From: Phreatobacter sp.
GTDB taxonomy: Bacteria; Pseudomonadota; Alphaproteobacteria; Rhizobiales; Phreatobacteraceae
Length of the DNA stretch: 64,000 nt
NCBI RefSeq assembly: GCF_027532945.1
Contig: NZ_JAPZTZ010000030.1
Location: 9,199-73,198, forward strand
Reading direction: 5' to 3'
The position numbers and the translations under genes are program-made. Shown in pieces: positions 8,416 to 60,746 of the stretch (position 1 is the first letter of the stretch; each line of letters starts with the position of its first letter). The notes below the pieces were generated by a model that was not told the DNA's origin, ran no database searches, and was given only the letters and a program-made list of their open reading frames with translations.

Positions 8416-9407
8416 GCCGAAACTCCCGAATAGGCGACCGCGCCGACGTCCTGCACATCCTCGTAGGCGATGGCCTCCTGCGGCCAGGGCGCCGCCTTGG
8501 CGTCGGCCACCGCCGCATCCATCTCCTCGCGCGCGGCCTTGCGGACAGCGTCGAGATCCGCCGCCGCGATCCCGCGCTCGGCGAGGACCACCGCCAGCCG
8601 GTCGATCGGGTCGCGCGTCTTCGCCTCCTCGACGCTGGCCGGGTCGCGCCAGGCGGCGGCATCGGTCGAGGTGTGGCCGGTGATGCGGAAGGTGCGGGCG
8701 TGAAGGAGCCGCGGCCCCTTGCCGGCGCGCACCTCGGCGACCAGCCGCGCCGCCGCCTCATCCACCGCCATGACGTCGTTGCCGTCGACGCTCACCCCCG
8801 GCACGCCGAGAGCCTCGGCGCGCGCCATGACGCCCGGGCCGGCCGTCACCGTGTCGGTGGCGGTGAAGGCGGAAACGCCATTGTCCTCGCAGATGAAGAG
8901 AACGGGGAGCTGGTAGAGCGCCGCCCAGTTCAGCCCTTCGAGGAAGGGCCCGCGGTTGATGGCGCCGTCGCCGAAGAAGCACACCGCGATGGCGCTCGAG
9001 CGCATCATCTTGAGGCCCTGCGCCGCGCCGACCGCGATGGGGATGCCGCCGGAGACGACGCCGTTCGCCCCGAGCATGCCGACCGAGAAGTCGGCAATGT
9101 GCATGGAGCCGCCCTTGCCGCGGCAATGGCCGCCGTCGCGGCCGAAGAGCTCGCGCATCATGCCCTGGACCCCCGCGCCCTTGGCGATGGCGTGGCCATG
9201 ACCGCGATGGTTCGAGGTGATGCGGTCCTCGGTGGCAAGGTTCAGGCAGACGCCGGTCGCGACCCCCTCCTGGCCGATGGAGACATGCAGCGGCCCGGGC
9301 ACGACGCCCTCCTTGTGGGCGTTGAGCGCCGCGGTCTCGAAGGCGCGGATGCGGCACATGGTGCCGAAGAGATCCAGCAGGCGCTGGACATTGTGGGTGC
9401 TCTGCAT
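8412..9407 (-). CDS. 2-oxoacid/acetoin dehydrogenase E1 alpha subunit (TPP-dependent)
   Basis: HRGHGH, GKGGSMH, TPP motif FGDGA...EDN, RITGHTSTD. Start refined to MQSTHN at 9407. Confidence 0.9.
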   Translation of the reverse strand: MQSTHNVQRLLDLFGTMCRIRAFETAALNAHKEGVVPGPLHVSIGQEGVATGVCLNLATEDRITSNHRGHGHAIAKGAGVQGMMRELFGRDGGHCRGKGGSMHIADFSVGMLGANGVVSGGIPIAVGAAQGLKMMRSSAIAVCFFGDGAINRGPFLEGLNWAALYQLPVLFICEDNGVSAFTATDTVTAGPGVMARAEALGVPGVSVDGNDVMAVDEAAARLVAEVRAGKGPRLLHARTFRITGHTSTDAAAWRDPASVEEAKTRDPIDRLAVVLAERGIAAADLDAVRKAAREEMDAAVADAKAAPWPQEAIAYEDVQDVGAVAYSGVSA

Positions 9408-13018: not shown

Positions 13019-14110
13019 TCAGCCCTTCCGGGCGATGACCGCCACCGGCCCGCCGCCCGGCGGCCCCTGATGCTCGGCGCCGCCGGAGACATAGATGTCG
13101 GTGCGGCCGACCACCCCGGCCAGCGCCCCCGCGACGAAGGCGCGGGCATGACGGGTGGAGGAAATGTCGGAATCGTCGAGCATCGTGTGCCGCGCGCCGC
13201 GGACCTGACCGTCTGGCGAGGCTTCCGCCTTGGCAAGCAGCGCCACGAGACGGTCCCGCGCCGCCTGTCCGAGCTGGCCCGGCGCGCCAAGACCGAGCCG
13301 CGCCAGCGCCGCCCGCACCGGCTCCACGTCGATGGCGTCGCCCATGACGGCGTGGTCGATGGCGAGGGGACCCGACCAGCTCTTCGACATGCCGAGCACG
13401 ACGATCTCGTGGTTGAGGAGTTCGACCCCGGCCGAGGCGCTGGCGCGGCCTGACCAGAGCCCGAGGTCGCGGCCGATCTGGGCGTCGGTGAGATCACTTT
13501 CCGCGATCTCAGCCAGCGCCACGGCGACGCCGAGCGACGAGGCGCCGCGCGACAGGCCCATGGATTTGAGCGTGTCGCGGACGGCGACGCTGGCGCCGCG
13601 CGCTTCCGCCTCGCCAATGCGCTGGGCGGTCAGCAGCGGGCACTTGATCTGGACGAAATGGACATCGGCCGGGTCGGTGAGCCCCGCCTGTGCCATGGCA
13701 GCGCGCACGCCCGCCGCCACCTGCCGCACCTGTCCGAGCCGGCCGAGATCCTCCGCCGGGAGTGCGGCGGTGTGGACGCGGCCGATGGCCAGCGCCGGAC
13801 CCGGCTCGCCCTCGCCCTCGACGCGCTCGAAGACGGTCCAGTGGGGCGTCATGGCGCCTTCGGTGCCGCCGGACATGACATAGCAGACCGCTTTCGCGCG
13901 CTCCTCGCCGATATGGCGGGCCAGCGCCAGGGTCAGCGACTGGGTGGCGAAGCCGCGCGTGAAGTCGTTGACGCAGCCATTGCCCTCGGTTTTGCCGAAA
14001 ATGGCGAGGATGCCGGCCGGGTCGATGGTTCCCGCCGCGATGGCGGATTCGAGCCCCGCAGCGTCGTCGGGACCCTGGGCGATGATGCGGTGGACGCGGG
14101 CGATCGGCAT
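13019..14110 (-). CDS. atzD: Cyanuric acid amidohydrolase (AtzD/barbiturase ring-opening amidohydrolase family)
   Basis: Family motifs [76 protein letters not shown] and [16 protein letters not shown]. Confidence 0.9.
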
Positions 14111-27808: not shown

Positions 27809-28600
27809 TCAGCCCCGCGCCGCGCCGCGCTTGGTGGCGAGCGAGGCCGCGATGACCAGCACCGTCACGGCGGCGATCATCAGCGTCGAGATGGCGTTGA
27901 TCTCGGGCGTCACGCCGAGCCGCACCTGGCTGTAGACGCGCATGGGCAGCGTGGTTGCGCCCGGCCCAGTGGTGAAGCTCGCGATGACGAGGTCGTCGAG
28001 CGACAGGGTGAAGGCGAGAAGGAAGCCGGCGATCACCGCGGGCGCGATGATCGGCAGGGTCACGTGGGTGAAAACCTGCCAGGGCTTCGCGCCAAGATCC
28101 GCCGCCGCCTCCTCCAGCGAGCGGTCGAAGGTGACGAGCCGCGACTGCACCACCACCGCGACGAAGCCGCAGGTGAAGGTCGCGTGAGCCACCGTCACGG
28201 TCCAGAAACCGCGCTCGAGGCCAAGCGACACGAAGAGCAGCAGCAGCGAAAGGCCGGTGATGACCTCCGGCATGACGATCGGCGCATAGACGAGACCGGA
28301 GAACAGCGTGCGGCCGCGGAAGCGGGCGTAGCGGGTCAGGGCGAGAGCCGCGAGCGTGCCGATCACCGTGGCGAGGAGGGCCGAGAGGGTCGCCACCTTC
28401 AGCGTCATCCAGGCAGCATCCATGAGCTGGCGGTTCTGCCAGAGGCCCGCATACCAGCGCGTCGAGAAGCCGCCCCAGACCGTGACGAGCTGGCTCGCAT
28501 TGAAGGAGAAGATCACCAGGATGACGATGGGCAGGTAGAGGAAGGCGAAGCCGAGGGTCAGCGCCGTGGCGTCGAGGTAGCGGGAGCGCGGGCTCATCAT
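27809..28600 (-). CDS. potI: Polyamine ABC transporter permease (PotI/PotC)
   Basis: FLYLPIVILVIFSFN, EAA loop SLEEAAADLGA, LPMRVYSQVRLGVTPEINA. Confidence 0.8.
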   Translation of the reverse strand: MMSPRSRYLDATALTLGFAFLYLPIVILVIFSFNASQLVTVWGGFSTRWYAGLWQNRQLMDAAWMTLKVATLSALLATVIGTLAALALTRYARFRGRTLFSGLVYAPIVMPEVITGLSLLLLFVSLGLERGFWTVTVAHATFTCGFVAVVVQSRLVTFDRSLEEAAADLGAKPWQVFTHVTLPIIAPAVIAGFLLAFTLSLDDLVIASFTTGPGATTLPMRVYSQVRLGVTPEINAISTLMIAAVTVLVIAASLATKRGAARG

Positions 28601-29484
28601 CGCCCCGCCTCCAGCTGGCGACCCTGATGGCGCTGGTAGACCATGATCGGCCCGACCAGGATCACCAAGAGCACCACGGCTACCGCCGAGGCCACCGGCC
28701 AGTCGCGGTTCGAGAAGAACTCGGTCCACAGCGTCTTGCCGATCATCAACGTGTCGGAGCCGCCGAGCAGGTCCGGGATCACCACCTCGCCGGTGATCGG
28801 GATGAAGCAGAGGAAGCAGCCGGCGACGATGCCTGGCAAGGACAGCGGCACGGTGATGCGCCAGAAGGCGAGCCAGGGCGGACATCCCAGGTCTGCCGCG
28901 GCCTCCAGCAGCGTGCGGTCCATGCGTTCCAGCGCCGCATAGAGCGGCAGCACCATGAAGGGCAGGTAGGAATAGACGACGCCGATGATCACGGCGGTCT
29001 CGGTATTGGCGATGGCGAGCGGCGCGCCGATCAGCAGCTCATTGAGCAGGCCCTCGGGCTTGAGGATGCCGATCCAGGCATAGACGCGGATGAGGAAGCT
29101 CGTCCAGAACGGCAGGATCACCGCCATGACCAGGACCGCCCGCCAGCGCTCAGGCGCGCGTGCCATGGCATGGGCCATGGGATAGCCGATGAGGAGGAGG
29201 ATCGCCGTGCCGATCAGCGCGATGCGGAGCGAGGAGAGGAAGGCGTCGATATAGAGCCGGTCGCCGGCGAGCACGGCGTAATTGTCGAGCGAGAGCTCGC
29301 GCGCCTTGGCGAGCCAGACGGCCGGACCGTCCTCCAGCCCGAAGACCGGCGTGTAGGGCGGAATGGCCGTCGCCACCTGCGACAGCGACATCTTCGCCAC
29401 GATGGCGAAGGGCACGAGGAAGAACAATGCGAGCCACAGATAGGGCACGAGGATGATGGTGCGACGGGTGGCGCGCTCGCTCAT
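28597..29484 (-). CDS. potH: Polyamine ABC transporter permease (PotH/PotB)
   Basis: LPFWTSFLIRVYAW, YLPFMVLPLYAALE, LLEAAADLG, NRDWPVASAVA. Confidence 0.8.
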   Translation of the reverse strand: MSERATRRTIILVPYLWLALFFLVPFAIVAKMSLSQVATAIPPYTPVFGLEDGPAVWLAKARELSLDNYAVLAGDRLYIDAFLSSLRIALIGTAILLLIGYPMAHAMARAPERWRAVLVMAVILPFWTSFLIRVYAWIGILKPEGLLNELLIGAPLAIANTETAVIIGVVYSYLPFMVLPLYAALERMDRTLLEAAADLGCPPWLAFWRITVPLSLPGIVAGCFLCFIPITGEVVIPDLLGGSDTLMIGKTLWTEFFSNRDWPVASAVAVVLLVILVGPIMVYQRHQGRQLEAGR

Positions 29485-29487
29485 GGC

Positions 29488-30639
29488 CTACCGCACCAAG
29501 AGAATGAGCGCCTCGGGCGCCACCGCAAGCCTCACCGGATCGCCCCAGTCGACCGCATCCTCCGCACGGCGGACGGCATTGGCCAACGCCGCCTTCAGCC
29601 GGAGGCCGCCGATATCGACATGGTAGGTCGACCAGTCGCCGAGATAGCCGATATCGGCGATCGTGCCGGTGAGCATCACGGAACCGGCCGGCCCGGTTTC
29701 GCCGGCGCGCACAAGCCGCGTCTTCTCCGGCCGCCAGGCCACCGCCACCGCCTGGCCGACCGACACCGGCTCACTGGCCTCTGCGACAACCATATCGCCC
29801 AGCGCCGTCATCACGCTCACGCGGCTCCCCTCGGCACCCGTGACCTTCCCCTCGACGAGGTTGATGTCGCCGATGAAGTCCGCGACATAACGCGTCGTCG
29901 GCGCCTCGTAGATGGCGCGCGGCGTGCCGATCTGCGCCAGCCGGCCCTTGTCCATGACGGCGATGCGCGTCGCCATGGTCATGGCCTCGTCCTGATCATG
30001 GGTGACGATGATGAAGGTGAGGCCGAGCCGTTCTTGCAGTGCCATCAGCTCGAACTGGGTCTCCTCACGCAGCTTGCGGTCAAGCGCGCCGAGCGGCTCG
30101 TCGAGCAGCAGCACCTTCGGCCGCTTCACCAGGGCGCGGGCGAGCGCCACCCGCTGCCGCTGTCCGCCGGAGAGCTGGTGCGGCTTGCGGCCTGCGAGAC
30201 CGTCGAGCTTCACCATGCGCAGCGCCTCGCCGACGCGGGCGCCGATCTCGTCCCGCGGCCGTCCCTCCATGGCGAGGCCGAAGGCGATGTTTGTCTCGAC
30301 GCTCATATGCGGGAAGAGCGCGTAGGACTGGAACATCATGTTGACGGGGCGCAGATGCGGCGGCACTCCCGCAAGATCCTCGCCGGCGAGCAGCACACGC
30401 CCCTCGCTCGGGCTCTCGAAGCCGGCGAGCATCCGCATCAGCGTGGACTTGCCGCAGCCCGACGGCCCGAGCAGCGCGAAGAACTCGCGCTCATAGACGG
30501 CGAGCGACAGGTCTACGACCGCGGTCTCCGCGCCGAAGCGCTTGGTCACGCCATCATAGACGACGAGGGGCCTCGCGGCCGGATCGTCCCAGGGGGCGAA
30601 GGCCGCGCGGTGCGCAGCCGGTCGTTCGGGAGGCTCCAT
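29488..30639 (-). CDS. potG: Polyamine ABC transporter ATPase (PotG/PotA)
   Basis: GPSGCGKS, FQSYALFPHM, LSGGQRQR, LLDEPLGALD, C-terminal TOBE-like region. Confidence 0.82.
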   Translation of the reverse strand: MEPPERPAAHRAAFAPWDDPAARPLVVYDGVTKRFGAETAVVDLSLAVYEREFFALLGPSGCGKSTLMRMLAGFESPSEGRVLLAGEDLAGVPPHLRPVNMMFQSYALFPHMSVETNIAFGLAMEGRPRDEIGARVGEALRMVKLDGLAGRKPHQLSGGQRQRVALARALVKRPKVLLLDEPLGALDRKLREETQFELMALQERLGLTFIIVTHDQDEAMTMATRIAVMDKGRLAQIGTPRAIYEAPTTRYVADFIGDINLVEGKVTGAEGSRVSVMTALGDMVVAEASEPVSVGQAVAVAWRPEKTRLVRAGETGPAGSVMLTGTIADIGYLGDWSTYHVDIGGLRLKAALANAVRRAEDAVDWGDPVRLAVAPEALILLVR

Positions 30640-30647
30640 GACGGGCC

Positions 30648-31766
30648 TCAGCGGCCGGTCTTGGCGCGCGTCCAGGCGCGGGTGATGACGCGCTGCAGCC
30701 GAGCATCGGGGCTCGTCACCGTGAAGAGCCGCGCCATCACCGCCTCCGGCGGATAGATCGACGGATTGTCCCTGACAGCCGGCGCCACCAGCGGCCGGGC
30801 GGCGAGGTTGCCGCTAGCATAGCTCACGAAGGTGGCGATCTTGGCCATGACCTCCGGCCGGTTCACGTAGTTGATGAAGGAGTGGGCGAGGTCGGCATTC
30901 GGCGCATCGGCCGGGATCGCCATCTGGTCGAACCACATCTGCGCGCCTTCCCGGGGGATGACGTACTGGATGTCGACGCCGTTACCCGCTTCCTTCGCCC
31001 GCTTCTGCGCCTGGAAGATGTCGCCGGAATAGCCGACCGCGAGGCAGATGTCGCCATTGGCCAGGGCCGAGATATACTCCGAGGAGTGGAACTTGGTGAT
31101 CAGCGTGCGCAATTGCTGCACATGCGAGGCGGCGGCCTCCCAGTCCTCGGCCCGCTTGGAATTGGGGTCGCGGCCAAGATAGCGCATCACCGAGGGCAGG
31201 AGATCCTCGGCCGTGTCGAGGAAATGGATGCCGCAATCCTTGAACCTGGCGAGCGTGTCGAAATCGAGCGCCAGGCGCCAGGAATCGAGCGGCGCATCGG
31301 GCATCCGTTCGCGGATCTTGGCGACATTGTAGCCGATGCCGGTCGTGCCCCAGAGATAGTTCACCGAGAAGGCGTTGCCGGGATCGTAGGCGGCGGTACG
31401 GCGCAGGATGTCCGGCCAGAAGTTGGTGCGGTTCGGGATCTTGGCGGGGTCCAGCCGCTGGTGGACATTGGCGGCGATCTGCCGCGACAGGAACGGCGCC
31501 GACGGCACGACGATGTCGTAGCCAGTGCGCCCGGCGAGCAGCCGCGTCTCCAGCACCTCGTTGGAATCATAGGTGTCGTAGACGACCTTGGCGTTGAACT
31601 CGCGTTCGAAGTCGCGGAGCACCTGCTCGTCGATATAATTCGACCAGTTGAAGATCCTCAGCTCCCGGGGCGCCTGGGCGGTCGCGGCGGCGACAAGGCC
31701 GAACGTCGCCAGGGCCAGTGTGGCGAAACCCGCGACGGCGCGTCGCGTCAGGGAGCCTGGGACCAT
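30648..31766 (-). CDS. potF: Polyamine (putrescine) ABC substrate-binding protein (PotF/PotD)
   Basis: FNWSNYI, YDSNEVLETRLLAG, GYDIVVPS, YLWGTTGIGYN, FHSSEYISALANGDIC, PREGAQMWFD. Confidence 0.82.
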   Translation of the reverse strand: MVPGSLTRRAVAGFATLALATFGLVAAATAQAPRELRIFNWSNYIDEQVLRDFEREFNAKVVYDTYDSNEVLETRLLAGRTGYDIVVPSAPFLSRQIAANVHQRLDPAKIPNRTNFWPDILRRTAAYDPGNAFSVNYLWGTTGIGYNVAKIRERMPDAPLDSWRLALDFDTLARFKDCGIHFLDTAEDLLPSVMRYLGRDPNSKRAEDWEAAASHVQQLRTLITKFHSSEYISALANGDICLAVGYSGDIFQAQKRAKEAGNGVDIQYVIPREGAQMWFDQMAIPADAPNADLAHSFINYVNRPEVMAKIATFVSYASGNLAARPLVAPAVRDNPSIYPPEAVMARLFTVTSPDARLQRVITRAWTRAKTGR

Positions 31767-31829: not shown

Positions 31830-33269
31830 TTAGCAACAGCCGAGGCTGTCGGAGAAGTGGCGACAGATCACCGCTTCCAGCTCCGGCAGGGCGGCGCGGA
31901 AGGCGCCGCGCGCCTCCACTTGTCCGCGCATGGCGGCGCGCAATTCGCGGTGGATGGCGGGAAGGTCCACGCCGGTGACAGTGCCGTCACGCACCACGAC
32001 GCGCCCGGCGATGAGCGTTTCCTTCAGATGCCTCCCGGAGGCGCGGGCGAAGAGCAACTCGACCGGCGGCACATCCATCAGCGCGTCATCGTCGAGCGCC
32101 GCGCGGTCGAGCACGACGAGATCGGCCGGCGCGCCGGCCTCGATCCGGCCCGTCACCGGCGAGTTCAGCGTGCGATGGCCGGCCGTGAACACCGCCTGCA
32201 TGACGTCGGCGGTGGAGACTTGCCTGTCGAAGCCCCAGCCGGCATGGAGCGACCAGACGAGGCGCATCTCGCGCAAGAGATCATCGTCTTCGTCAAAGGC
32301 CTGGCCGTCGATGCCGAGGCCGACCTTGCAGCCCGCCTTGATCATCGCCGCCACCGGCGCAAGACCCGAGCGCAGCGCGAGATTGGAGGAGGTATTGACC
32401 GAGATGGTCGCGCCACTCTCGGCGATCAGCTCCAGATCCTGAGGGGAAGCCCAGGTGCAATGGGCCAGCGTCAGGCGAGGTGACAGCAGCCCGATCTCTT
32501 TCAGGTGTCGGGCGATGCCGCCAGGAAAATGTCGGTCGGCCCAGTCGCGCTGGTAGCGGGTTTCCAGCAGGTGCATGTGCACCCGCCGGCCGGTGCGCTC
32601 CGAGGCCTCGGCGATGCCCTCGAGCAGCGCCGGCGTCGACCATTGCACGCCGTTCGGGCCGTATTGCACATCGACCATCGGCGAGGCGATGGCGGCGGCG
32701 ACGGCCTCGACGCGGGCGAGCTGCTCGGCAACAGGCAAGGGCTTGGCGAGGAACCGCGCCTCGACCTCGGCGCGTGCGGCGGGCGACAGCGCGTCGAGGA
32801 TCGGGCCTGACTCGCCATAGACGAGCGGATTGGCATCGCGCATGGCGATGCCGAAGGCGATGCGCAGTCCGACATCGCTCGCCGCGCGCGCCACCTCCTT
32901 CGCCTCGGTGACGAAGTCGGTGAGGCCCTGGACGCGGGTGTAGTGGACCATCGAGGCCCCCTGCCCGCCGAGCAGCGCCCGGCCGAAGGGCGCCACCGAG
33001 GCCAGCCAGGGATCGACCGAGCCGAAGAGCTGCAGCCGGTGCAGCCAGGTTTCCAGCGGCCGGCCAAAGCCGCCGATGGAGGAGGTGCGCAGCGAACGCG
33101 CATGGTCATGCGCGTTCGCCAGGGCAGGAAGGACCAGCACATCGTCATGGGCCTCGCCGGGGGCGAGGTCCCGCACCGCGGTGATGCGGTCGCCCTCCAC
33201 AATGATGGCGGAGGGGCCGCGGGCGCCGCCGGCGTCGATGAGGCCGGCGACGGTGAGAATGCGGGTCAT
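31830..33269 (-). CDS. Metal-dependent amidohydrolase, deaminase type
   Basis: NAHDHAR (HxH), VHMHLLE (HxxE), LAHC, GIDG, GRIEAGAPADLVVLD. Start refined to 33269. Confidence 0.85.
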   Translation of the reverse strand: MTRILTVAGLIDAGGARGPSAIIVEGDRITAVRDLAPGEAHDDVLVLPALANAHDHARSLRTSSIGGFGRPLETWLHRLQLFGSVDPWLASVAPFGRALLGGQGASMVHYTRVQGLTDFVTEAKEVARAASDVGLRIAFGIAMRDANPLVYGESGPILDALSPAARAEVEARFLAKPLPVAEQLARVEAVAAAIASPMVDVQYGPNGVQWSTPALLEGIAEASERTGRRVHMHLLETRYQRDWADRHFPGGIARHLKEIGLLSPRLTLAHCTWASPQDLELIAESGATISVNTSSNLALRSGLAPVAAMIKAGCKVGLGIDGQAFDEDDDLLREMRLVWSLHAGWGFDRQVSTADVMQAVFTAGHRTLNSPVTGRIEAGAPADLVVLDRAALDDDALMDVPPVELLFARASGRHLKETLIAGRVVVRDGTVTGVDLPAIHRELRAAMRGQVEARGAFRAALPELEAVICRHFSDSLGCC

Positions 33270-33301
33270 GATGGTCCTGCAGCTACGACGTTGACGCGCC
33301 C

Positions 33302-34354
33302 TCAGGCGCCGGCGGCGCGCTCGGCGGCCGGCGGCAGGAAGGAGCGGTTGAACACCTCGGAAGGCGCCGGGGCCCGCGGCAGCTGGAAGACGTCGACGAT
33401 CTGCGCGATGGCGCGGGTCATGCGCGCATCGTCCACGTCGCCGAAGCCGAGGGTCCGGACCTCCGGCGTGACGATCGCCGTCTTCGCGGCATAGTCGACC
33501 CGGCGGGCCTCCAGTGCCTGGTTGAACAGCGGCTCGACCTTGGTCATCGGCGCCATGGCGGCTGCCGGGTTGGCGAGCGTCTCCTTCATGGCGCGGTTGA
33601 CCGCCGAGACGAGGCCGCGCACCGCCGCCGGATTGTCGCGGGCGAGCTTCTGCGAGACCATCACGCCGTTGGAATAGGCGGCGATGCCGTGGTCGCCGAA
33701 GACGAACCAGCGGAAGTCCTTGTCCGGGTCCTGCCGCATGCCGATCAGGTTCATGTAGCTGGTCAGGGTGAAGATCAGCGAGGCCTGAACCTGGTCCTGG
33801 ATGAGCATCTGCTCCTGCAGGTTCGGCGCCATGTTGATGATCTCGTTCTTCGCCGGATCGATGCCGTTGATCTTGGCGAAGGCCGGCCACATGCGCGTCG
33901 TCGCCGAGCCGGCCGGACCGCCGAGCTTCTTGCCCTCGAGATCCTTGACCGTGTTGATGCCGCTATTGGCCTTCACGACCACGCCGAAGGGGGCCTTGTT
34001 GTAGATCATGTAGACCATGACCGGCTGCTCGCCGGGCCGCTGCGCGGCGTTCTGGATGATGGCGTTGACGTCGCCGAAGCCGGCGTCATAGGCGCCGCCC
34101 ATGACGCGGGAGACGGTCGCCGCCGAGCCCTCGCCCTGGTCGATGGTGACATCGAGGCCGGCGTCGCGGAAATAGCCCTTCTCCTGGGCGAGATAGTACC
34201 AGGCGTGAACGCCCTGGAACCGCCAGTCGAGGGTGAACTTCAGCGCGGTACGGGACTGCGCGAGGGCCGGGGCAGCGAGAAGCGTGGCGGCGGAGCCGAT
34301 GAGCATGCGTCGGGAGAAGAGCACGGAAATCCTCCGGTTGGGGGAAAAAGGCAT
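33302..34354 (-). CDS. NMT1/THI5-like ABC substrate-binding protein (paralog 1)
   Basis: [30 protein letters not shown]; RR signal peptide. Confidence 0.87.
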
Positions 34355-34360
34355 GCGTGG

Positions 34361-35140
34361 TCAGGTCACCGCAAGGTCCTTGCGGTGGGCCCAGCCGGTG
34401 ACCCGGCTCTCGGCCAGCGAGAAGATCGCGTAGAGGCCGACGCCGAGGCCGGCGAGGATGAAGAGCCCGGCGAAGACCAGCGGCACGTTGAAGGTGGACG
34501 AGGCCACCATCATCATGTTGCCGATACCGCGGTTGGAGGCGACGGTTTCCGCCACCACCGAACCGACGAAGGCGAGCGTCACCGCGACCTTCAGCGAGGC
34601 GAAGAAATAGGGCATGGCCCGGGGCAGCGAGACGTTCCAGAGGATGTCCCACTTCGACGCCTTCAGCGTCTTCATCACATCCTCGAGCTCCGGCTCCACC
34701 GTGGCGATGCCGGTGGCGACGTTCACGACGATGGGGAAGATGCAGATGATCGCCGCGGTGAGGATGGCGGGCACGGTGCCGGCGCCGAACCACAGGACGA
34801 AGATCGGCACCACCGCCACCTTCGGGATCGAGGAAATGCCGACCAGCAGCGGATAGGCCGTGTCATAAGCGAGGCGCGAGGAGCCGATGGCGACCCCGAA
34901 GGCGACGCCGATGAGGACGCCGATGCCGAAGCCGGCCAGCGTCGTGAACAGCGTCTGCCCGGCATGCGGGCGGATCGCCGGCCAGTACTGGATCAGCGAG
35001 GCGATGATCTGGGTCGGGCGCGGCAGCACGATGTCGGAAATGCCGCCGATGAGGCAGGCGACCTCCCAGAAGACGAAGACGCCGATGATGAGGGCGATCG
35101 AGGCCGACTTGCGGCGGATGAGGTCGGACAGTCCGTCCAT
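34361..35140 (-). CDS. ABC permease, NitT/TauT family (paralog 1)
   Basis: SIPKVAVVPIFVLWFG, FPIVVNVATG, LPRAMPYFFASLKVA. Start refined to 35140. Confidence 0.88.
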   Translation of the reverse strand: MDGLSDLIRRKSASIALIIGVFVFWEVACLIGGISDIVLPRPTQIIASLIQYWPAIRPHAGQTLFTTLAGFGIGVLIGVAFGVAIGSSRLAYDTAYPLLVGISSIPKVAVVPIFVLWFGAGTVPAILTAAIICIFPIVVNVATGIATVEPELEDVMKTLKASKWDILWNVSLPRAMPYFFASLKVAVTLAFVGSVVAETVASNRGIGNMMMVASSTFNVPLVFAGLFILAGLGVGLYAIFSLAESRVTGWAHRKDLAVT

Positions 35141-35142
35141 GG

Positions 35143-36063
35143 TCAGTGTCCTCCCGCCTGGACGATGCCAGTGCCCCCGCGGGCCGCGACGATCAGGCTG
35201 CGCAGGCGCTGGTTGAGCGCGACGAATTCGGCCTCGTAGGTCATGTCGATGCCCCGCGGCCGGGCGAAGGCGACGGGGGAGTCGTCGAGGATGCGGCCGG
35301 GACGGGCGCTCATCACGCAGATGCGGTTGGCGAGGAAACCGGCCTCGCGCAGGTCGTGGGTGACGAGGAGGACCGTGGTCTTCTTCGACATCCACAGGTC
35401 CTGCATGATCTGCCAGAGCTCCTCGCGGGTGAACTGGTCGAGGGCACCGAAGGGCTCGTCGAGCAGCAGGAGGTCCGGCTCGTGGATGAGGGCGCGGCAG
35501 AGATTGGCGCGCTGCATCATGCCGCCGGAGAGCTGCCATGGAAATTTATCGCCGAAGCCGGCGAGGCCAACCTGCGCCAGCAGCGCCTCGACCCGGTCGC
35601 GGAACTCGGTCTTGCGCTTGGCCGAGAACTCCGACCGGAAGGGCGGCACGATCTTCAGCGGCAGCATGACGTTGTCGCGGATGTTCATCCACGGCAGCAG
35701 CGTCGGGTTCTGGTAGGCCATGCCGATGCGGATCGGGGTGGCGCCGAGCTCGCGGCCACCGACGAAGACATGGCCGGTCGAGGGCTTCAACAGGTCGCCG
35801 ACCAGCTTCAGCAGCGTGGACTTGCCGCAGCCCGACGGACCAACCAGCGCGACGAAATCGCCCTCGGCGATGGCGAGGCTCGTCTCGGACAGCGCCTGGA
35901 CCTGCTTGTCCCCCTTGCCGAAGCGCACGGTGACCTTCTCGAACTCGATGAAGGGACGCGCGCTGGAGACGCGCGCCGCGCCGTCCGTTTCGGGACTGCC
36001 TGTTTCTTGGGCAGCCATCCCGTCATCGGGCGGTGGGGCGACCTTGGCGAGGGCGAGGGTCAT
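35143..36063 (-). CDS. ABC ATPase, NitT/TauT family (paralog 1)
   Basis: GPSGCGKST, KFPWQLSGGMMQR, DEPFGALDQFTRE, VTHDLREA. Confidence 0.9.
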   Translation of the reverse strand: MTLALAKVAPPPDDGMAAQETGSPETDGAARVSSARPFIEFEKVTVRFGKGDKQVQALSETSLAIAEGDFVALVGPSGCGKSTLLKLVGDLLKPSTGHVFVGGRELGATPIRIGMAYQNPTLLPWMNIRDNVMLPLKIVPPFRSEFSAKRKTEFRDRVEALLAQVGLAGFGDKFPWQLSGGMMQRANLCRALIHEPDLLLLDEPFGALDQFTREELWQIMQDLWMSKKTTVLLVTHDLREAGFLANRICVMSARPGRILDDSPVAFARPRGIDMTYEAEFVALNQRLRSLIVAARGGTGIVQAGGH

Positions 36064-36113
36064 GGCAAATCCTGCTAATGCGGAAGCGCGGTGCCGTTGG
36101 GCCCCTCGGGGTT

Positions 36114-36129
36114 CGCAAGACAGGTGCCA
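36114..36129 (-). promoter_or_regulatory. sigma54 promoter of the ABC-amidohydrolase operon
   Basis: Minus strand TGGCACC-TGTC-TTGCG, about 50 nt upstream of ATG 36063. Confidence 0.8.
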
Positions 36130-36234
36130 ATCCCGCCTTCCATGCCTGCGTCATCCCGGCGCGGGCCCCTCTCCCGGCGGTGTTGCCGGGGCTTTCGCGC
36201 TCGGGCAGGCTCCAGATCCATACTGGAGCCGCCC

Positions 36235-36738
36235 ATGACAGCCTCACCGCACGACCTCGACGCCCTCGCCGCCCGCATCGCCGGGCGGCTGGTCGCCCGC
36301 AGCGAGACCGTCGCCGTCTCCGAATCCTCCGCCGGCGGGCTGATTTCCGCCGCGCTGCTCGCCGTGCCGGGGGCCTCCGCCTATTATCTAGGCGGCGCTG
36401 TGGTTTACACGCCCAAGGCCCGGGACGCGCTGTTGCGCATCTCGACGCGGCAGATGGTCGAGAGCGGCATCCGTTCGGCCTCGGAACCCTGGGCGGCGCT
36501 GATGGCAAAGACCATCCGAGACAGCCATGGCGCGGTCTGGGGCCTGTCGGAGACCGGCGCCACAGGGCCGACGGGCAACCGCTACGGCGATGCCGCCGGC
36601 CATGCCTGCCTCGGCCTCGACGGGCCGGTCGTGCGGACCCTCACCATCGCCACCGGCTCGGCCGACCGCGCCGCCAACATGCGCGCCTTCGCGGCGGCGG
36701 CACTGGAGCTCTTCGCCGAGGCGCTGGAGGCAGGCTGA
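36235..36738 (+). CDS. CinA/PncC-family protein (stand-alone, divergent active site)
   Basis: VAVSESSAGG, VPGASAY..GGAVVY, SETGATGP, DRAAN; aligns by eye with PncC. Start refined to 36235. Confidence 0.8.
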   Translation: MTASPHDLDALAARIAGRLVARSETVAVSESSAGGLISAALLAVPGASAYYLGGAVVYTPKARDALLRISTRQMVESGIRSASEPWAALMAKTIRDSHGAVWGLSETGATGPTGNRYGDAAGHACLGLDGPVVRTLTIATGSADRAANMRAFAAAALELFAEALEAG

Positions 36739-57707: not shown

Positions 57708-57729
57708 ACGGCCCAGGCCTTCAGCAAAC

Positions 57730-57746
57730 TGCACATTTGTTGCGCA
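57730..57746. promoter_or_regulatory. Putative NtrC site
   Basis: TGCAC-ATTTGTT-GCGCA (1 mismatch to TGCAC-N7-GTGCA). Confidence 0.65.
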
Positions 57747-57786
57747 GAATTGTCGCGGGGCGACAGATTCAGGTTGCCGTCCCTTG

Positions 57787-57802
57787 CGGCATGGTCTTTG
57801 CT
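57787..57802 (+). promoter_or_regulatory. sigma54 promoter of the second NMT1-type ABC operon
   Basis: CGGCATG-GTCT-TTGCT with GG-N10-GC spacing. Confidence 0.7.
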
Positions 57803-57905
57803 GCCCAGGCAGTGAGACGGTGTCCGGCCAGGTGTGGCCGGGAACACCTCGGCCACGCCGCCGGCTCAGGCCCCGACAACCCGCGACCGCCCAGAAGGCC
57901 CGTCC

Positions 57906-58955
57906 ATGACCGAGTTCCGCTTTCGTCCGACCCGCCGCGACACCCTGAAGCTCGCCGGCGCCGCCTCCCTTGCCTCGCTGTTCGCCCCCGCCGTCCACGC
58001 CCAGGCCACGACCAATGTGCGCTTCACGCTGGACTGGCGCTTCGAGGGTCCCTCGGCGCTGTTCCTCACCGCGCTGGAGAAGGGTCATTTCCGGGCCGAG
58101 GGCCTGAACGTCACCATCGACGCCGCCTCCGGCTCGCGCGAGGGCGTCACCCGCGTCGCCTCGGGCACCTATGACATCGGCTTCGGCGACATCAACTCGA
58201 TGATCCGCTTCCGCGACGAGAACCCGACGGTCGACCTCAAGGCGAACATGATCGTCTATGACCGCCCGCCCTTCGCCATCGTCGGCCGCAAGTCGCGTGG
58301 CATCACCACCGACGTGAAGAGCCTCGAGGGCAAGAAGTTCGGCGCCCCGGCCCCTGATGCCGCCTATGCGCAGTGGCCGATCTTCAAGGCGGTGAACAAG
58401 CTCGACGATTCCAAGATGCGCTTTGAGAATGTCGGCTTCCCCGTCCGCGAGCCCATGCTGGCCTCGGGCGAGGTGGACGCGATCTTCGGCTTTGCCAATT
58501 CCTCCTTCATCAACCTCAAGTCGCGCGGCGTGCCGGAGAACGACATCGTCGTGCTGCACATGTACGACTACGGCGTCGAGCTCTATGGCAACGCCATCAT
58601 GGCGAGCCCCGGCTTCCTCGCCGCCAACCGCGGCGCGGTGGCGGCCTTCAACCGCGGCCTCGTCAAGGGCATCCGCGAGTGCATCGCCGACCAGGGCGCC
58701 GGCGCCCGGCTGGTCGTCGCCCGCAACGACGTCGCCCGCCTCGAGACCGAGACCGAGCGGCTGAAGATGACCATCGACAATTATGTGCTGTCGCCCTGGG
58801 TCAAGGCCAACGGCATCGGCGGCATCGACCCGGCTCGCATGGCCACCGCCATCGACCAGATCGGCCTGACCTTCACCTTCAAGAACAAGCCGAAGGTCGA
58901 GGACGTCTTCATCACCGACCTGCTGCCCGCCGCTGCCGACCGCAAGGTGGCCTGA
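57906..58955 (+). CDS. NMT1/THI5-like ABC substrate-binding protein (paralog 2)
   Basis: Tat-like [37 protein letters not shown]. Start refined to 57906. Confidence 0.87.
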   Translation: MTEFRFRPTRRDTLKLAGAASLASLFAPAVHAQATTNVRFTLDWRFEGPSALFLTALEKGHFRAEGLNVTIDAASGSREGVTRVASGTYDIGFGDINSMIRFRDENPTVDLKANMIVYDRPPFAIVGRKSRGITTDVKSLEGKKFGAPAPDAAYAQWPIFKAVNKLDDSKMRFENVGFPVREPMLASGEVDAIFGFANSSFINLKSRGVPENDIVVLHMYDYGVELYGNAIMASPGFLAANRGAVAAFNRGLVKGIRECIADQGAGARLVVARNDVARLETETERLKMTIDNYVLSPWVKANGIGGIDPARMATAIDQIGLTFTFKNKPKVEDVFITDLLPAAADRKVA

Positions 58956-58977
58956 GGCTTGCTACGCCTTTGAGTTG

Positions 58978-58997
58978 CGGGGGCGCTCGCGCCCCCG
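58978..58997 (+). other. Intra-operon hairpin after the SBP gene
   Basis: CGGGGGCG-CTCG-CGCCCCCG, weak T tail; probably an mRNA stabiliser or partial terminator. Confidence 0.55.
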
Positions 58998-59018
58998 TTC
59001 CCTCCCCATGCGGCAGCG

Positions 59019-59855
59019 TTGGTAACAAGACACCGCGAGGCCCTGTTCGAGAGACGAAAGCCCTTGCGTCCCTTCGTCGAACTGACCGGCGTCAGCCACA
59101 CCTACGCCACCGGCGGCACCCTCGCCGTCGACGGCCTCGACATCCGGGTCAACGAGGGCGAGTTCGCCGCGGTGGTCGGGCCTTCGGGCTGCGGCAAGTC
59201 CACGCTGATGAAGCTCGCCACAGGCCTGCAGTTCCCGCAGTCCGGCGCCGTCGTTGTCGACGGCCAGGAGGTGCGCGCGCCCGTCAAGATCGCCGGCATG
59301 GCCTTCCAGGCGCCGACGCTGCTGCCCTGGCGCACCACGCTCGAGAATCTCATGCTGCCGCTTGAGATCGTCGAGCCGCACCGCTCGCGGCTGCGCCGCC
59401 ACAAGGCCGAATATGTCGCCAAGGCCGAGGCGCTGCTCGAATCCGTCGGCCTCAAGGGCGCCGGATCGAAGTTCCCCTGGCAGCTCTCCGGCGGCATGCA
59501 GCAGCGCTCCTCGCTCTGCCGCGCCCTCATCCACGAGCCGAAGCTGCTCATGCTGGACGAGCCCTTCGGCGCGCTCGATGCCTTCACCCGCGAGGAGCTG
59601 TGGTGCGTCATCCGCGACCTCCACGCCCGCATGGCCGGCACGCTGACGGTGATCCTCGTCACCCACGACCTGCGCGAGGCCGTCTTCCTCGCCGACCGCA
59701 TCTTCTGCATGTCGGCCCGCCCGGGGAAGATCATCGCCGAGAGGGAAGTGACCTTCCCCCGCCCCCGCGACCTCGAGATCACCTACACCTCGGAATTCTC
59801 CGACATCGTCCACGACCTGCGCGGCCGTATCGCCGAAGCCCGGACCGCCGCCTGA
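59019..59855 (+). CDS. ABC ATPase, NitT/TauT family (paralog 2)
   Basis: GPSGCGKST, KFPWQLSGGMQQR, DEPFGALDAFTRE; TTG start at 59019 or 59064. Confidence 0.9.
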   Translation: MVTRHREALFERRKPLRPFVELTGVSHTYATGGTLAVDGLDIRVNEGEFAAVVGPSGCGKSTLMKLATGLQFPQSGAVVVDGQEVRAPVKIAGMAFQAPTLLPWRTTLENLMLPLEIVEPHRSRLRRHKAEYVAKAEALLESVGLKGAGSKFPWQLSGGMQQRSSLCRALIHEPKLLMLDEPFGALDAFTREELWCVIRDLHARMAGTLTVILVTHDLREAVFLADRIFCMSARPGKIIAEREVTFPRPRDLEITYTSEFSDIVHDLRGRIAEARTAA

Positions 59856-59864
59856 GGATCGACC

Positions 59865-60746
59865 ATGGACGCGCTTGCCGACTTCCTGCTCCTCAACTGG
59901 CCGACAGCCCTCGTCATCGGCTGCGTCGCCTATGTGGCCATGCTGCTCTACAAGGTGATCGGCGCCTCGGCGCTTGACCGCACCAAGCTCGGGCTGCAGC
60001 TCGCCCCGCTGCTCTGCACGGTGGGTACGTTCCTCGCCTGGGAGCTGCTCTGCAAGGCGTTTGCGGTCTCCACCTTCGTGCTGCCGGCCCCCAGCGACAT
60101 TGCCGTCGCCATCTGGCAGTTCCGCCGGCAGATCGGCTTCCATTCCTTCCACACCGCCTGGATGACGCTGGCCGGCTTCGGCCTCGCCGTCGCGGTCGGC
60201 ATTGCCCTCGGCCTCGTCCTCGGCGCCAGCCGCTTCTTCTATGCCGGTTTCTATCCGCTCCTCGTGGGCTTCAACTCGATCCCGAAGGTCGCGGTGGTGC
60301 CGATCCTCGTCATCTGGTTCGGCGTCGGCTGGCTGCCGGCGGTGCTCACCGCCTTCATGATCTCGTTCTTCCCCATCGTGGTGAACGTCGCCACCGGCCT
60401 CGCCACCATCGAGCCGGAGACCGAGGACGTGCTGAAGGCGCTCGGCGCCTCCAAGCTGCAGATCATGACCAAGGTCGGCATTCCCCGGTCGCTGCCCTAT
60501 TTCTTCGGTTCGCTGAAGGTCGCCATCACGCTGGCCTATGTCGGCTCGGTCATCGCCGAGTACAACGCCTCGCGCTATGGCATCGGCAACCTCATGGCCC
60601 GCGCCTCCGCCGACTTCAACGTGCCGCTGCTCTTCGCCGCGCTGATCGCCCTCGCGATCCTCGGTGTCGCCATGTACATGGCCACCGTCTGGCTGGAGAA
60701 CCGCATGACCGGCTGGGCGCAGCGCTCCTCCTTCGCGGCCGGCTGA
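59865..60746 (+). CDS. ABC permease, NitT/TauT family (paralog 2)
   Basis: SIPKVAVVPILVIWFG, FPIVVNVATG, IPRSLPYFFGSLKVA. Confidence 0.9.
   Translation: MDALADFLLLNWPTALVIGCVAYVAMLLYKVIGASALDRTKLGLQLAPLLCTVGTFLAWELLCKAFAVSTFVLPAPSDIAVAIWQFRRQIGFHSFHTAWMTLAGFGLAVAVGIALGLVLGASRFFYAGFYPLLVGFNSIPKVAVVPILVIWFGVGWLPAVLTAFMISFFPIVVNVATGLATIEPETEDVLKALGASKLQIMTKVGIPRSLPYFFGSLKVAITLAYVGSVIAEYNASRYGIGNLMARASADFNVPLLFAALIALAILGVAMYMATVWLENRMTGWAQRSSFAAG

Follow-up and report, generated by a model that had tools for sequence, protein, structure and literature searches.

A sigma54-type importer and amidohydrolase operon of Phreatobacter with genetic links to cyanuric acid hydrolase

Which compound does a freshwater Phreatobacter take up and hydrolyze by means of a four-gene operon that combines an ABC importer with a deaminase-type amidohydrolase behind a sigma54-type promoter? 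The question is raised by a stretch of 64,000 nucleotides (positions 9,199 to 73,198 of contig NZ_JAPZTZ010000030.1, assembly GCF_027532945.1; hereafter the window), whose source is a lake-water metagenome. An earlier, sequence-only reading of this DNA proposed that the operon imports and deaminates an amino-substituted pyrimidine, purine or s-triazine and may be controlled by a dedicated enhancer-binding protein. Its description of a sigma54-type NitT/TauT ABC importer joined to a deaminase-type amidohydrolase without a named family stands, while the dedicated activator is unsupported. The explanation that best accounts for the data as a whole, to which we assign a probability of roughly one half, is that a nitrogen-limitation sigma54 operon encodes a heterocycle importer and a feeder hydrolase whose product would be cyanuric acid. 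It is likely that the operon functions as part of the cyanuric acid pathway; an ammelide-like compound as the substrate of the hydrolase, and with it that specific chemistry, is a tentative proposal.

The gene order ATPase, permease, binding protein and amidohydrolase is as first described, with all four genes on the minus strand. The first gene (35143-36063) encodes a 306-residue ABC transporter ATPase of the NitT/TauT family (Pfam ABC_tran, 5.8e-30), whose top NCBIfam models (SaoA, TauB, SsuB and NtrCD) each score under their cut-offs; the second (34361-35140) encodes a 259-residue permease (BPD_transp_1, 2.8e-26); the third (33302-34354) encodes a 350-residue periplasmic substrate-binding protein of the NMT1/THI5 type with a signal peptide (NMT1, 3.1e-37); and the fourth (31830-33269) encodes a 479-residue deaminase-type amidohydrolase of cog0402, subtype III (Amidohydro_1, 4.1e-31), referred to below as the hydrolase. 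The intergenic gaps of 2, 6 and 32 nt, in this order, make the four genes one tight operon, and a simple scan of it for a sigma70-consensus promoter and a terminator found neither. An ABC_tran ATPase, a BPD_transp_1 permease and a secreted NMT1-domain protein encoded in one operon place the importer in the NitT/TauT group, its nearest NCBIfam models being of the Sao, Tau, Ssu and Ntr types, all under their cut-offs. Orthologues of the ATPase (65-95% identity) occupy the same slot in related loci, as do permease orthologues that are 65-99% identical, and in most related clusters the gene for the binding protein likewise stands between those for the permease and the hydrolase. The binding protein has no close solved relative; its best PDB match is 4nmy (3e-11).

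Membership of the binding protein in the NMT1/THI5 Pfam family brings to mind thiamine-pyrimidine salvage, in which a ThiXYZ-type transporter and an accessory hydrolase would handle hydroxymethylpyrimidine (HMP) or formylaminopyrimidine (FAMP). The ThiXYZ importer is of the same transporter family, and its binding protein ThiY (3ix1), a binder of an HMP precursor, carries the same Pfam domain. The similarity to ThiY is just E = 6e-4, however, and the operon stands behind a sigma54 promoter of the nitrogen-control type in a catabolic, nitrogen-type context. No Rfam family exceeds its threshold anywhere in the window, and therefore there is no thiamine pyrophosphate (TPP) riboswitch. As the sequence-only reading had argued from the missing riboswitch, and as the synteny with catabolic amidohydrolases and cyanuric acid hydrolase genes described below now adds, salvage of a thiamine precursor is extremely improbable.

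By its sequence, the hydrolase is a cog0402 member that falls outside every characterized family. Its residues follow the subtype III pattern, with HxH after strand 1, HxxE after strand 5, His after strand 6 and Asp after strand 8; the catalytic roles of these residues in deaminase-type enzymes have been described (PMC12828455). The metal ligands H54, H56, H233, H270 and D321 and the proton shuttle E236 do not vary among 24 homologues (45-100% identity), and thus the ligands picked out by the sequence-only reading are real. Further conserved in the family are a PLExW segment, Q202, W210 and Q240-R241. More than 120 protein clusters at ≥55% identity belong here, all labeled just "amidohydrolase family protein". 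The AlphaFold model (pLDDT 94.9) predicts a distorted (beta/alpha)8 barrel with a beta-sandwich formed by the N- and C-terminal parts, and Foldseek relates it, with probability 1.00, TM scores of 0.74-0.79 and about 20% identity, to Vcz (7ww2), TrzN (3ls9), AtzA (4v1x), 8-oxoguanine deaminase (3hpa) and the MTA/SAH deaminases (4f0r, 4dyk). These solved enzymes share the fold and the identical HxH, HxxE, His and Asp residues; alignment by sequence to solved structures covers mainly the C-terminal half of the hydrolase.

The named models are far from the hydrolase. The best NCBIfam model, 8-oxoguanine deaminase (NF006055), scores 129 bits against a cut-off of 532, the TRZ-ATZ hydrolase models NF006549 and NF004701 reach 108 of 540 and 125 of 609 bits, and guanine deaminase (TIGR02967) reaches 66 bits (61 in the genome scan) against 375. 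Guanine deaminase is also a known ammeline deaminase. Since 8-oxoguanine, isocytosine and guanine deaminases come nearest to it among the named models and folds, the hydrolase could be an enzyme that deaminates a nucleobase (guanine, 8-oxoguanine, isocytosine, pterin or similar) for scavenging, with an indirect link to cyanuric acid hydrolase; consistent with this, a canonical guanine deaminase above cut-off was not found in the genome, and some solitary copies of the hydrolase gene adjoin nucleoside-type BMP transporters and LOG-family genes. We regard such an activity as improbable, given scores 4- to 6-fold under every equivalog cut-off and a repeated, direct linkage to cyanuric acid hydrolase and biuret/amidase-type genes that fits no known purine salvage. 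Moreover, the Gln after strand 1 (HxHxxQ), which in guanine-deaminase-type enzymes binds the substrate ring or exocyclic oxygen (PMC12828455), is absent.

The linkage to cyanuric acid hydrolase (CAH) carries most of the argument. The AtzD-like gene to which the sequence-only reading pointed, 18 kb from the operon (13019-14110, minus strand), encodes a bona fide CAH, scoring 570 bits against the cut-off of 360 of the equivalog model NF052395 and matching the Azorhizobium CAH (PDB 4nq3) at 1e-148 and barbiturase (5hwe) at 1e-71; its product would be the downstream partner of the hydrolase. Among 301 genomes of the order, CAH is present in 24 of the 33 with the hydrolase and in 18 of the 268 without it (odds ratio 37), and at the genus level the two overlap in 10 cases where 2.4 would be expected (p = 3e-6). 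Eight of the 301 genomes, belonging to four families, have the CAH gene 15-70 bp behind the hydrolase gene on the same strand, and six of the eight have an eight-gene array that encodes a second substrate-binding protein (SBP2), an SDR, a cyclic amidohydrolase, the ATPase, the permease, the substrate-binding protein, the hydrolase and CAH. Across 116 related loci with enough flank, tallied in 117 rows because one locus is entered twice, the CAH gene lies directly after the hydrolase gene in 21, from several families. Direct adjacency and co-occurrence across the order thus make the link stronger than had been guessed from the two genes in the window.

The importer is found together with the SDR/cyclic amidohydrolase trio in 43 of the 116 loci, 19 of which have a CAH gene, and without the trio in 25, none of which does (0/25). 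Carriers of the cluster include Bosea, Methylobacterium, Chelatococcus, Tardiphaga, Bradyrhizobium, Rhodoplanes and Pseudolabrys, and further Aquabacter, Jiella, Roseibium, Elioraea, Roseomonas and a Rubrivivax. The CAH of the Aquabacter cluster matches the crystallized and biochemically characterized Azorhizobium enzyme with 576 bits (E = 3e-172), which identifies the terminal gene of the cluster as that of a true cyanuric acid hydrolase. Two-gene operons of hydrolase and CAH with unrelated neighbors also occur, and in a third architecture the hydrolase, CAH, an isochorismatase-type (RutB/BiuH-like) hydrolase and an amidase are encoded around a BMP-type transporter. Genes that recur in the flanks encode LysR (25 loci), formamidase-like (20), CodA-like amidohydrolase (15), isochorismatase-like (15), GntR (11) and NTF2-like (10) proteins. 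This third type is seen in five loci from Methylocapsa, Beijerinckiaceae and others (L120, L126, L127, L128 and L131), which combine a BMP-family ABC transporter, an isochorismatase-like protein, sometimes CAH, an amidase, the hydrolase with its terminal Gly-Cys-Cys and a 2OG-Fe(II) oxygenase; here the hydrolase is tied to genes of the cyanuric acid type by way of an entirely different transporter.

The commonest architecture, in which all four enzymes and two binding proteins are grouped around one permease, can be read in another way. The hydrolase, the SDR and the cyclic amidohydrolase would then form one series of steps acting on some other natural ring, for example an oxidized purine or ureide product (oxonate/5-azaorotate, 5-azauracil/5-azacytosine or an iminohydantoin). 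Only after a redox step would cyanuric acid, or a different substrate of CAH, be formed, and ammelide would not be the physiological substrate. The Rubrivivax cluster, in which the CAH gene directly follows the cyclic amidohydrolase gene, agrees with such a series, as do the formamidase-like genes that flank 20 loci and would fit ring-opening products of the formyl-biuret type; the deep divergence of the cluster also argues for a natural rather than a xenobiotic substrate. We nevertheless consider this reading unlikely, since in 25 loci the importer and the hydrolase are encoded without SDR or cyclic amidohydrolase genes and have their own promoter, and since hydrolase and CAH genes also form pairs alone (L048, L049, L143 and L145).

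The steps after cyanuric acid are likewise present in the genome. A biuret hydrolase is encoded on contig C26 (423 bits, cut-off 370) and an allophanate hydrolase on contig C35 (586 bits, cut-off 511), so that all three enzymes of the Rhizobium leguminosarum-type mineralization of cyanuric acid (CAH, BiuH and allophanate hydrolase; PMC5806882, PMC7948467) are found above their thresholds. As described, that pathway begins with cyanuric acid and includes neither an importer nor a feeder of its own, whereas here the genes of an importer and an upstream hydrolase are linked to it and, in other genomes, those of an SDR and a cyclic amidohydrolase as well. Because biuret and allophanate hydrolases are at hand, the hydrolase is not needed after CAH, which favors the role of an upstream feeder. 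For the same reason the idea that it stands in for a missing biuret hydrolase was rejected.

The opposite placement, with the hydrolase acting after ring opening or on an acyclic compound (carboxybiuret, biuret, triuret or guanylurea) and the importer taking up cyanuric acid or biuret, would account for the nine genomes in which the hydrolase and importer occur without CAH, and cyanuric acid is present in lake water (PMC12342508). HutF, a cog0402 member, deiminates an acyclic amidine. Against it stand the biuret and allophanate hydrolases already encoded in this genome above their cut-offs and the biuret hydrolase gene that also lies near the eight-gene clusters elsewhere; furthermore, no characterized cog0402 enzyme among the named matches uses a ureido amide, all of them attacking an sp2 ring or amidine carbon. 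We judge an acyclic substrate quite improbable, and the feeder role upstream of CAH remains the preferred one.

Both downstream loci have features of their own. At C35:72093-77571, the sigma54 motif TGGCACGAGCGTTGCG lies about 35 nt 5' of the allophanate hydrolase gene, which is followed by genes for a NitT/TauT-type binding protein, permease and ATPase and an SDR; the allophanate hydrolase itself is spread over overlapping open reading frames in different frames (76150-77529 and 75699-76232), indicating a frameshift or a split gene. At C26:34763-37396, the biuret hydrolase gene is divergent from a third operon for a NitT/TauT-type permease and binding protein, driven by TGGCATCCCTCTTGCG, a motif that recurs, letter for letter, in front of the hydrolase operon of certain other species of the genus.

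The promoter suggests how the operon may be expressed. The -24/-12 element TGGCACCTGTCTTGCG (36115-36130, minus strand) matches the sigma54 pattern TGGCAC-N5-TTGC exactly; within it, TGGCACCTGTCTTGC (36115-36129, minus strand) lies 52 nt 5' of the ATPase ATG, with the GG and GC doublets 10 nt apart and oriented correctly 5' of the operon. The exact motif occurs once in the 64-kb window, and the pattern TGGCA[CT]-N5-TTGC has 19 matches in the 4.13-Mb genome, that of the operon among them. In all 17 Phreatobacter loci examined, the motif keeps its spacing to the start of the ATPase gene. Three of them, those of P. stygius and two relatives, have a cyclic amidohydrolase gene immediately before the operon, and there the final codons of this gene have kept ACCTTGGCATCNGTCTTGCGA; it is hard to account for such retention inside a coding sequence other than by function. 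Outside the genus, a targeted scan located the motif before the corresponding operon of further families (L047, L050-52 and L054), and TGGCAC/T-N5-TTGCA precedes the orthologous ATPase-first operon in Rhodomicrobium, in Tardiphaga and in genomes that probably belong to Bradyrhizobium, where palindromes of the TGCATGCA type overlap the motif beside a divergent GntR gene. A promoter that had been called near-perfect is thus both exact and conserved beyond the genus.

The remaining 18 copies of the motif in the genome include one about 35 nt 5' of the allophanate hydrolase operon (C35), one that drives the divergent transporter operon beside the biuret hydrolase gene (C26) and one 5' of rpoN itself, of which the genome has a single copy; variants with one mismatch precede glnK and a second NMT1-type ABC operon in the window. 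The copy associated with rpoN, TGGCATGAACCTTGCT at C24:9661-9676, is situated about 50 nt upstream of the open frame that contains the single rpoN and may be an autoregulation site.

Six sigma54 activators are encoded in the genome. NtrC, NtrX and FlbD score above their cut-offs, the NtrC being canonical (716 bits); a PAS-domain, NorR/NifA-like protein and a LuxO-like protein score below theirs, and the sixth has sub-threshold matches of the AtoC/NtrC type only, the last two being response-regulator types. A dedicated activator of the operon was considered and rejected, as none of the six genes lies on the contig of the window (C10) and five of the six proteins best match a named type. With a canonical NtrC in the genome and the same type of promoter before glnK, the second ABC operon and the operons linked to biuret and allophanate hydrolysis, the dedicated enhancer-binding protein of the sequence-only reading is unsupported. 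General control by NtrC is most likely, as the economical reading, and in vivo the operon would depend on sigma54 and NtrC. The second NMT1-type ABC operon (window 57729-60746), which encodes a substrate-binding protein, an ATPase and a permease, the latter two 53-55% identical to those of the hydrolase operon, presents TGCACATTTGTTGCGCA, a site of the TGCAC-N7-GCGCA type, about 45 nt 5' of cGGCATggtctTTGCt. This is a textbook layout of activator site and sigma54 promoter; the hydrolase operon has no such site.

In this genome the parts of the eight-gene cluster are dispersed, the operon and CAH lying in the window and the SDR/cyclic amidohydrolase trio and the biuret and allophanate hydrolases on other contigs. 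Contig C27 encodes a LysR regulator, SBP2, the SDR and the cyclic amidohydrolase, which are 76-87% identical to those of P. stygius, with neither an ATPase nor a permease of their own. Since this half of the cluster lacks membrane components, SBP2 probably delivers a second, related substrate to the permease of the operon. Some Phreatobacter species have lost the binding-protein gene from within the operon while keeping the promoter, ATPase, permease and hydrolase (L038-L042 and L071-L075), and there the transporter must use a binding protein encoded elsewhere. Such operons, together with two further paralogous binding proteins in the present genome, suggest that several binding proteins share one permease.

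Two side observations concern this half of the cluster. At C27:68099-80245, the LysR gene and the SBP2, SDR and cyclic amidohydrolase genes stand back to back with a gene for a second cog0402 paralogue, 31% identical to the hydrolase of the window, next to which lie a GntR-like gene and a 785-residue open reading frame that by eye reads as a putative large subunit of a molybdenum hydroxylase; the neighborhood of this paralogue looks like another candidate unit for the catabolism of N-heterocycles. In L001 and L004, Phreatobacter loci in which SBP2 opens the cluster, the region upstream of SBP2 (L001 3770-3830) contains a TAGGCA/TGCCTA palindrome and a conserved TTATGCAATTG, and both a sigma54 motif and an adjacent LysR gene are absent from it. 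The absence of a sigma54 motif before SBP2 indicates that the two halves are separately controlled even where they are contiguous.

The operon of the window is thus one half of a cluster conserved widely among Alphaproteobacteria, a point that the sequence-only reading had missed, and we propose a model in which this half supplies the importer and the feeder enzyme. Under nitrogen limitation, NtrC and sigma54 would transcribe the operon; the binding protein would capture a nitrogen-rich, six-membered heterocycle in the periplasm, and the ABC importer would take it up. The metallo-hydrolase would then attack an sp2 ring carbon that bears an amino or N-substituent, with release of ammonia or an amine, a chemistry common to the cog0402 group (PMC12828455). 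The most likely reaction would convert an ammelide-like amino-s-triazine to cyanuric acid and ammonia, after which CAH, biuret hydrolase and allophanate hydrolase would free the remaining nitrogen. Which way the transporter works, which compound is the substrate and that cyanuric acid is the product are all inferred in this model. In a broader form, the cluster may be an undescribed natural pathway that imports natural s-triazine-type compounds and converts them to cyanuric acid, its candidate substrates being ammelide-like amines and oxidized purine or ureide products, for example oxonate or 5-azauracil; we hold this to be possible but doubtful.

Several observations weigh against the model. 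With respect to regulation, there is no clear NtrC site, as had been noted before: TGCAC-N7-GTGCA with at most two mismatches was not found upstream of the promoter. A relaxed form of this pattern is rarer than in shuffled sequence and so uninformative; a conserved CCTGCCCGAGC...GCAAC element is seen in the same region. In other genera, LysR or GntR regulators control the cluster. With respect to gene content, nine of the 33 genomes with the hydrolase lack CAH, in about 40% of the loci the hydrolase gene stands by itself or among other neighbors, and a simple deamination route does not explain what the SDR and the cyclic amidohydrolase do.

Other such points come from the enzyme itself, which differs from the solved cog0402 enzymes in three features beyond its low identity. 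The oxygen-binding Gln of guanine-deaminase-type enzymes is lacking and Arg58 is invariant instead, the hydrolase motif reading H-D-H-A-R-x with a variable Gln position in the 24 homologues. After the Asp of strand 8, the (A/S)SN of relatives is replaced by an invariant acidic DEDDD loop. The C terminus is longer by 35 residues, a two-helix extension that solved relatives lack and that ends in an invariant Gly-Cys-Cys (window 31830-31841). Together, Arg58, the acidic loop and the Gly-Cys-Cys tail could point to a cationic, charged or otherwise different substrate, and the tail and the loop might coordinate a second metal or extend into an active site. Finally, the hydrolase has no relationship to TrzC, the known ammelide hydrolase, or to AtzC, both of them members of the cytosine deaminase (CodA) cluster (PMC12828455, PMC4577212). 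The PDB matches of the hydrolase at E ≤ 1e-3 and those of the family profile at 1e-10 include no CodA or AtzC chain. Some related clusters are flanked by a separate CodA-like gene, which is absent from the window.

TrzC (ammelide aminohydrolase) and AtzC (N-isopropylammelide isopropylaminohydrolase) are nonetheless among the known systems closest to the proposed one. They are mononuclear feeders of the amidohydrolase superfamily that exchange an amino substituent of an s-triazine for a hydroxyl and pass cyanuric acid on to a ring-opening hydrolase encoded nearby, as proposed for the enzyme of the window. Their order of genes, feeder and then CAH, as in the linkage of trzC and trzD for which PMC4577212 cites Eaton and Karns (1991), is analogous to the order of hydrolase and CAH genes in the related loci. 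In contrast to these CodA-cluster enzymes (PMC12828455), the hydrolase forms a separate branch of cog0402 with a Gly-Cys-Cys extension and has no significant similarity to them, and its cluster is chromosomal, ancient and widespread whereas theirs are plasmid- or xenobiotic-associated. A literature search, one relevant paper aside, yielded no description of the hydrolase family or of the eight-gene cluster. A nitrogen-scavenging operon of ABC importer and amidohydrolase and a cyanuric acid pathway are known kinds of system; the new part would be the uncharacterized enzyme family and the cluster.

The genes on either side of the operon appear to lie outside the system. Upstream, a divergent gene with a CinA/PncC domain (36238-36738, plus strand; NCBIfam PncC_domain and CinA matches) shares a 174-bp intergenic region with the operon. 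Directly 5' of its start codon is an inverted repeat, GGCTCCAG-N7-CTGGAGCC (36205-36227, plus strand), which contains the GGAG of this gene. Both arms are altered in concert in L036, the closest relative (GGCTCCGG...CCGGAGCC), and these paired changes suggest a conserved hairpin in the leader, which could mask the ribosome-binding site. Downstream, potF/G/H-like polyamine ABC genes (28597-31766, minus strand; PotF 4.3e-128, under cut-off) follow the hydrolase gene after a 63-nt gap in which the scan detected no terminator-like site, and read-through from the operon into them is possible. A link to polyamines through the neighboring potFGHI and hss genes was considered and rejected, as the synteny of hss, cinA, the operon, potFGHI, glnK and amtB is confined to the genus Phreatobacter.

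The natural role of CAH is an acknowledged puzzle. Cyanuric acid was not known as a natural product when the structure of the Azorhizobium enzyme was described (PMC4051656), and a 2025 study found it in Paramecium secretions and in lake water, its biological origin being poorly understood (PMC12342508). The hydrolase and its importer are specific, clonable candidates for the steps that feed CAH. If the model is correct, the cog0402 amidohydrolases would gain a new specificity class, marked by Arg for Gln, an acidic loop and a C-terminal Cys-Cys. Transporters for triazine-type compounds would also be identified, which would be relevant to the bioremediation of melamine and triazines. A natural pathway of this kind, if true, would reveal the missing physiological source of the CAH substrate and would account for an ancient CAH that is spread widely among bacteria which have never encountered synthetic triazines.

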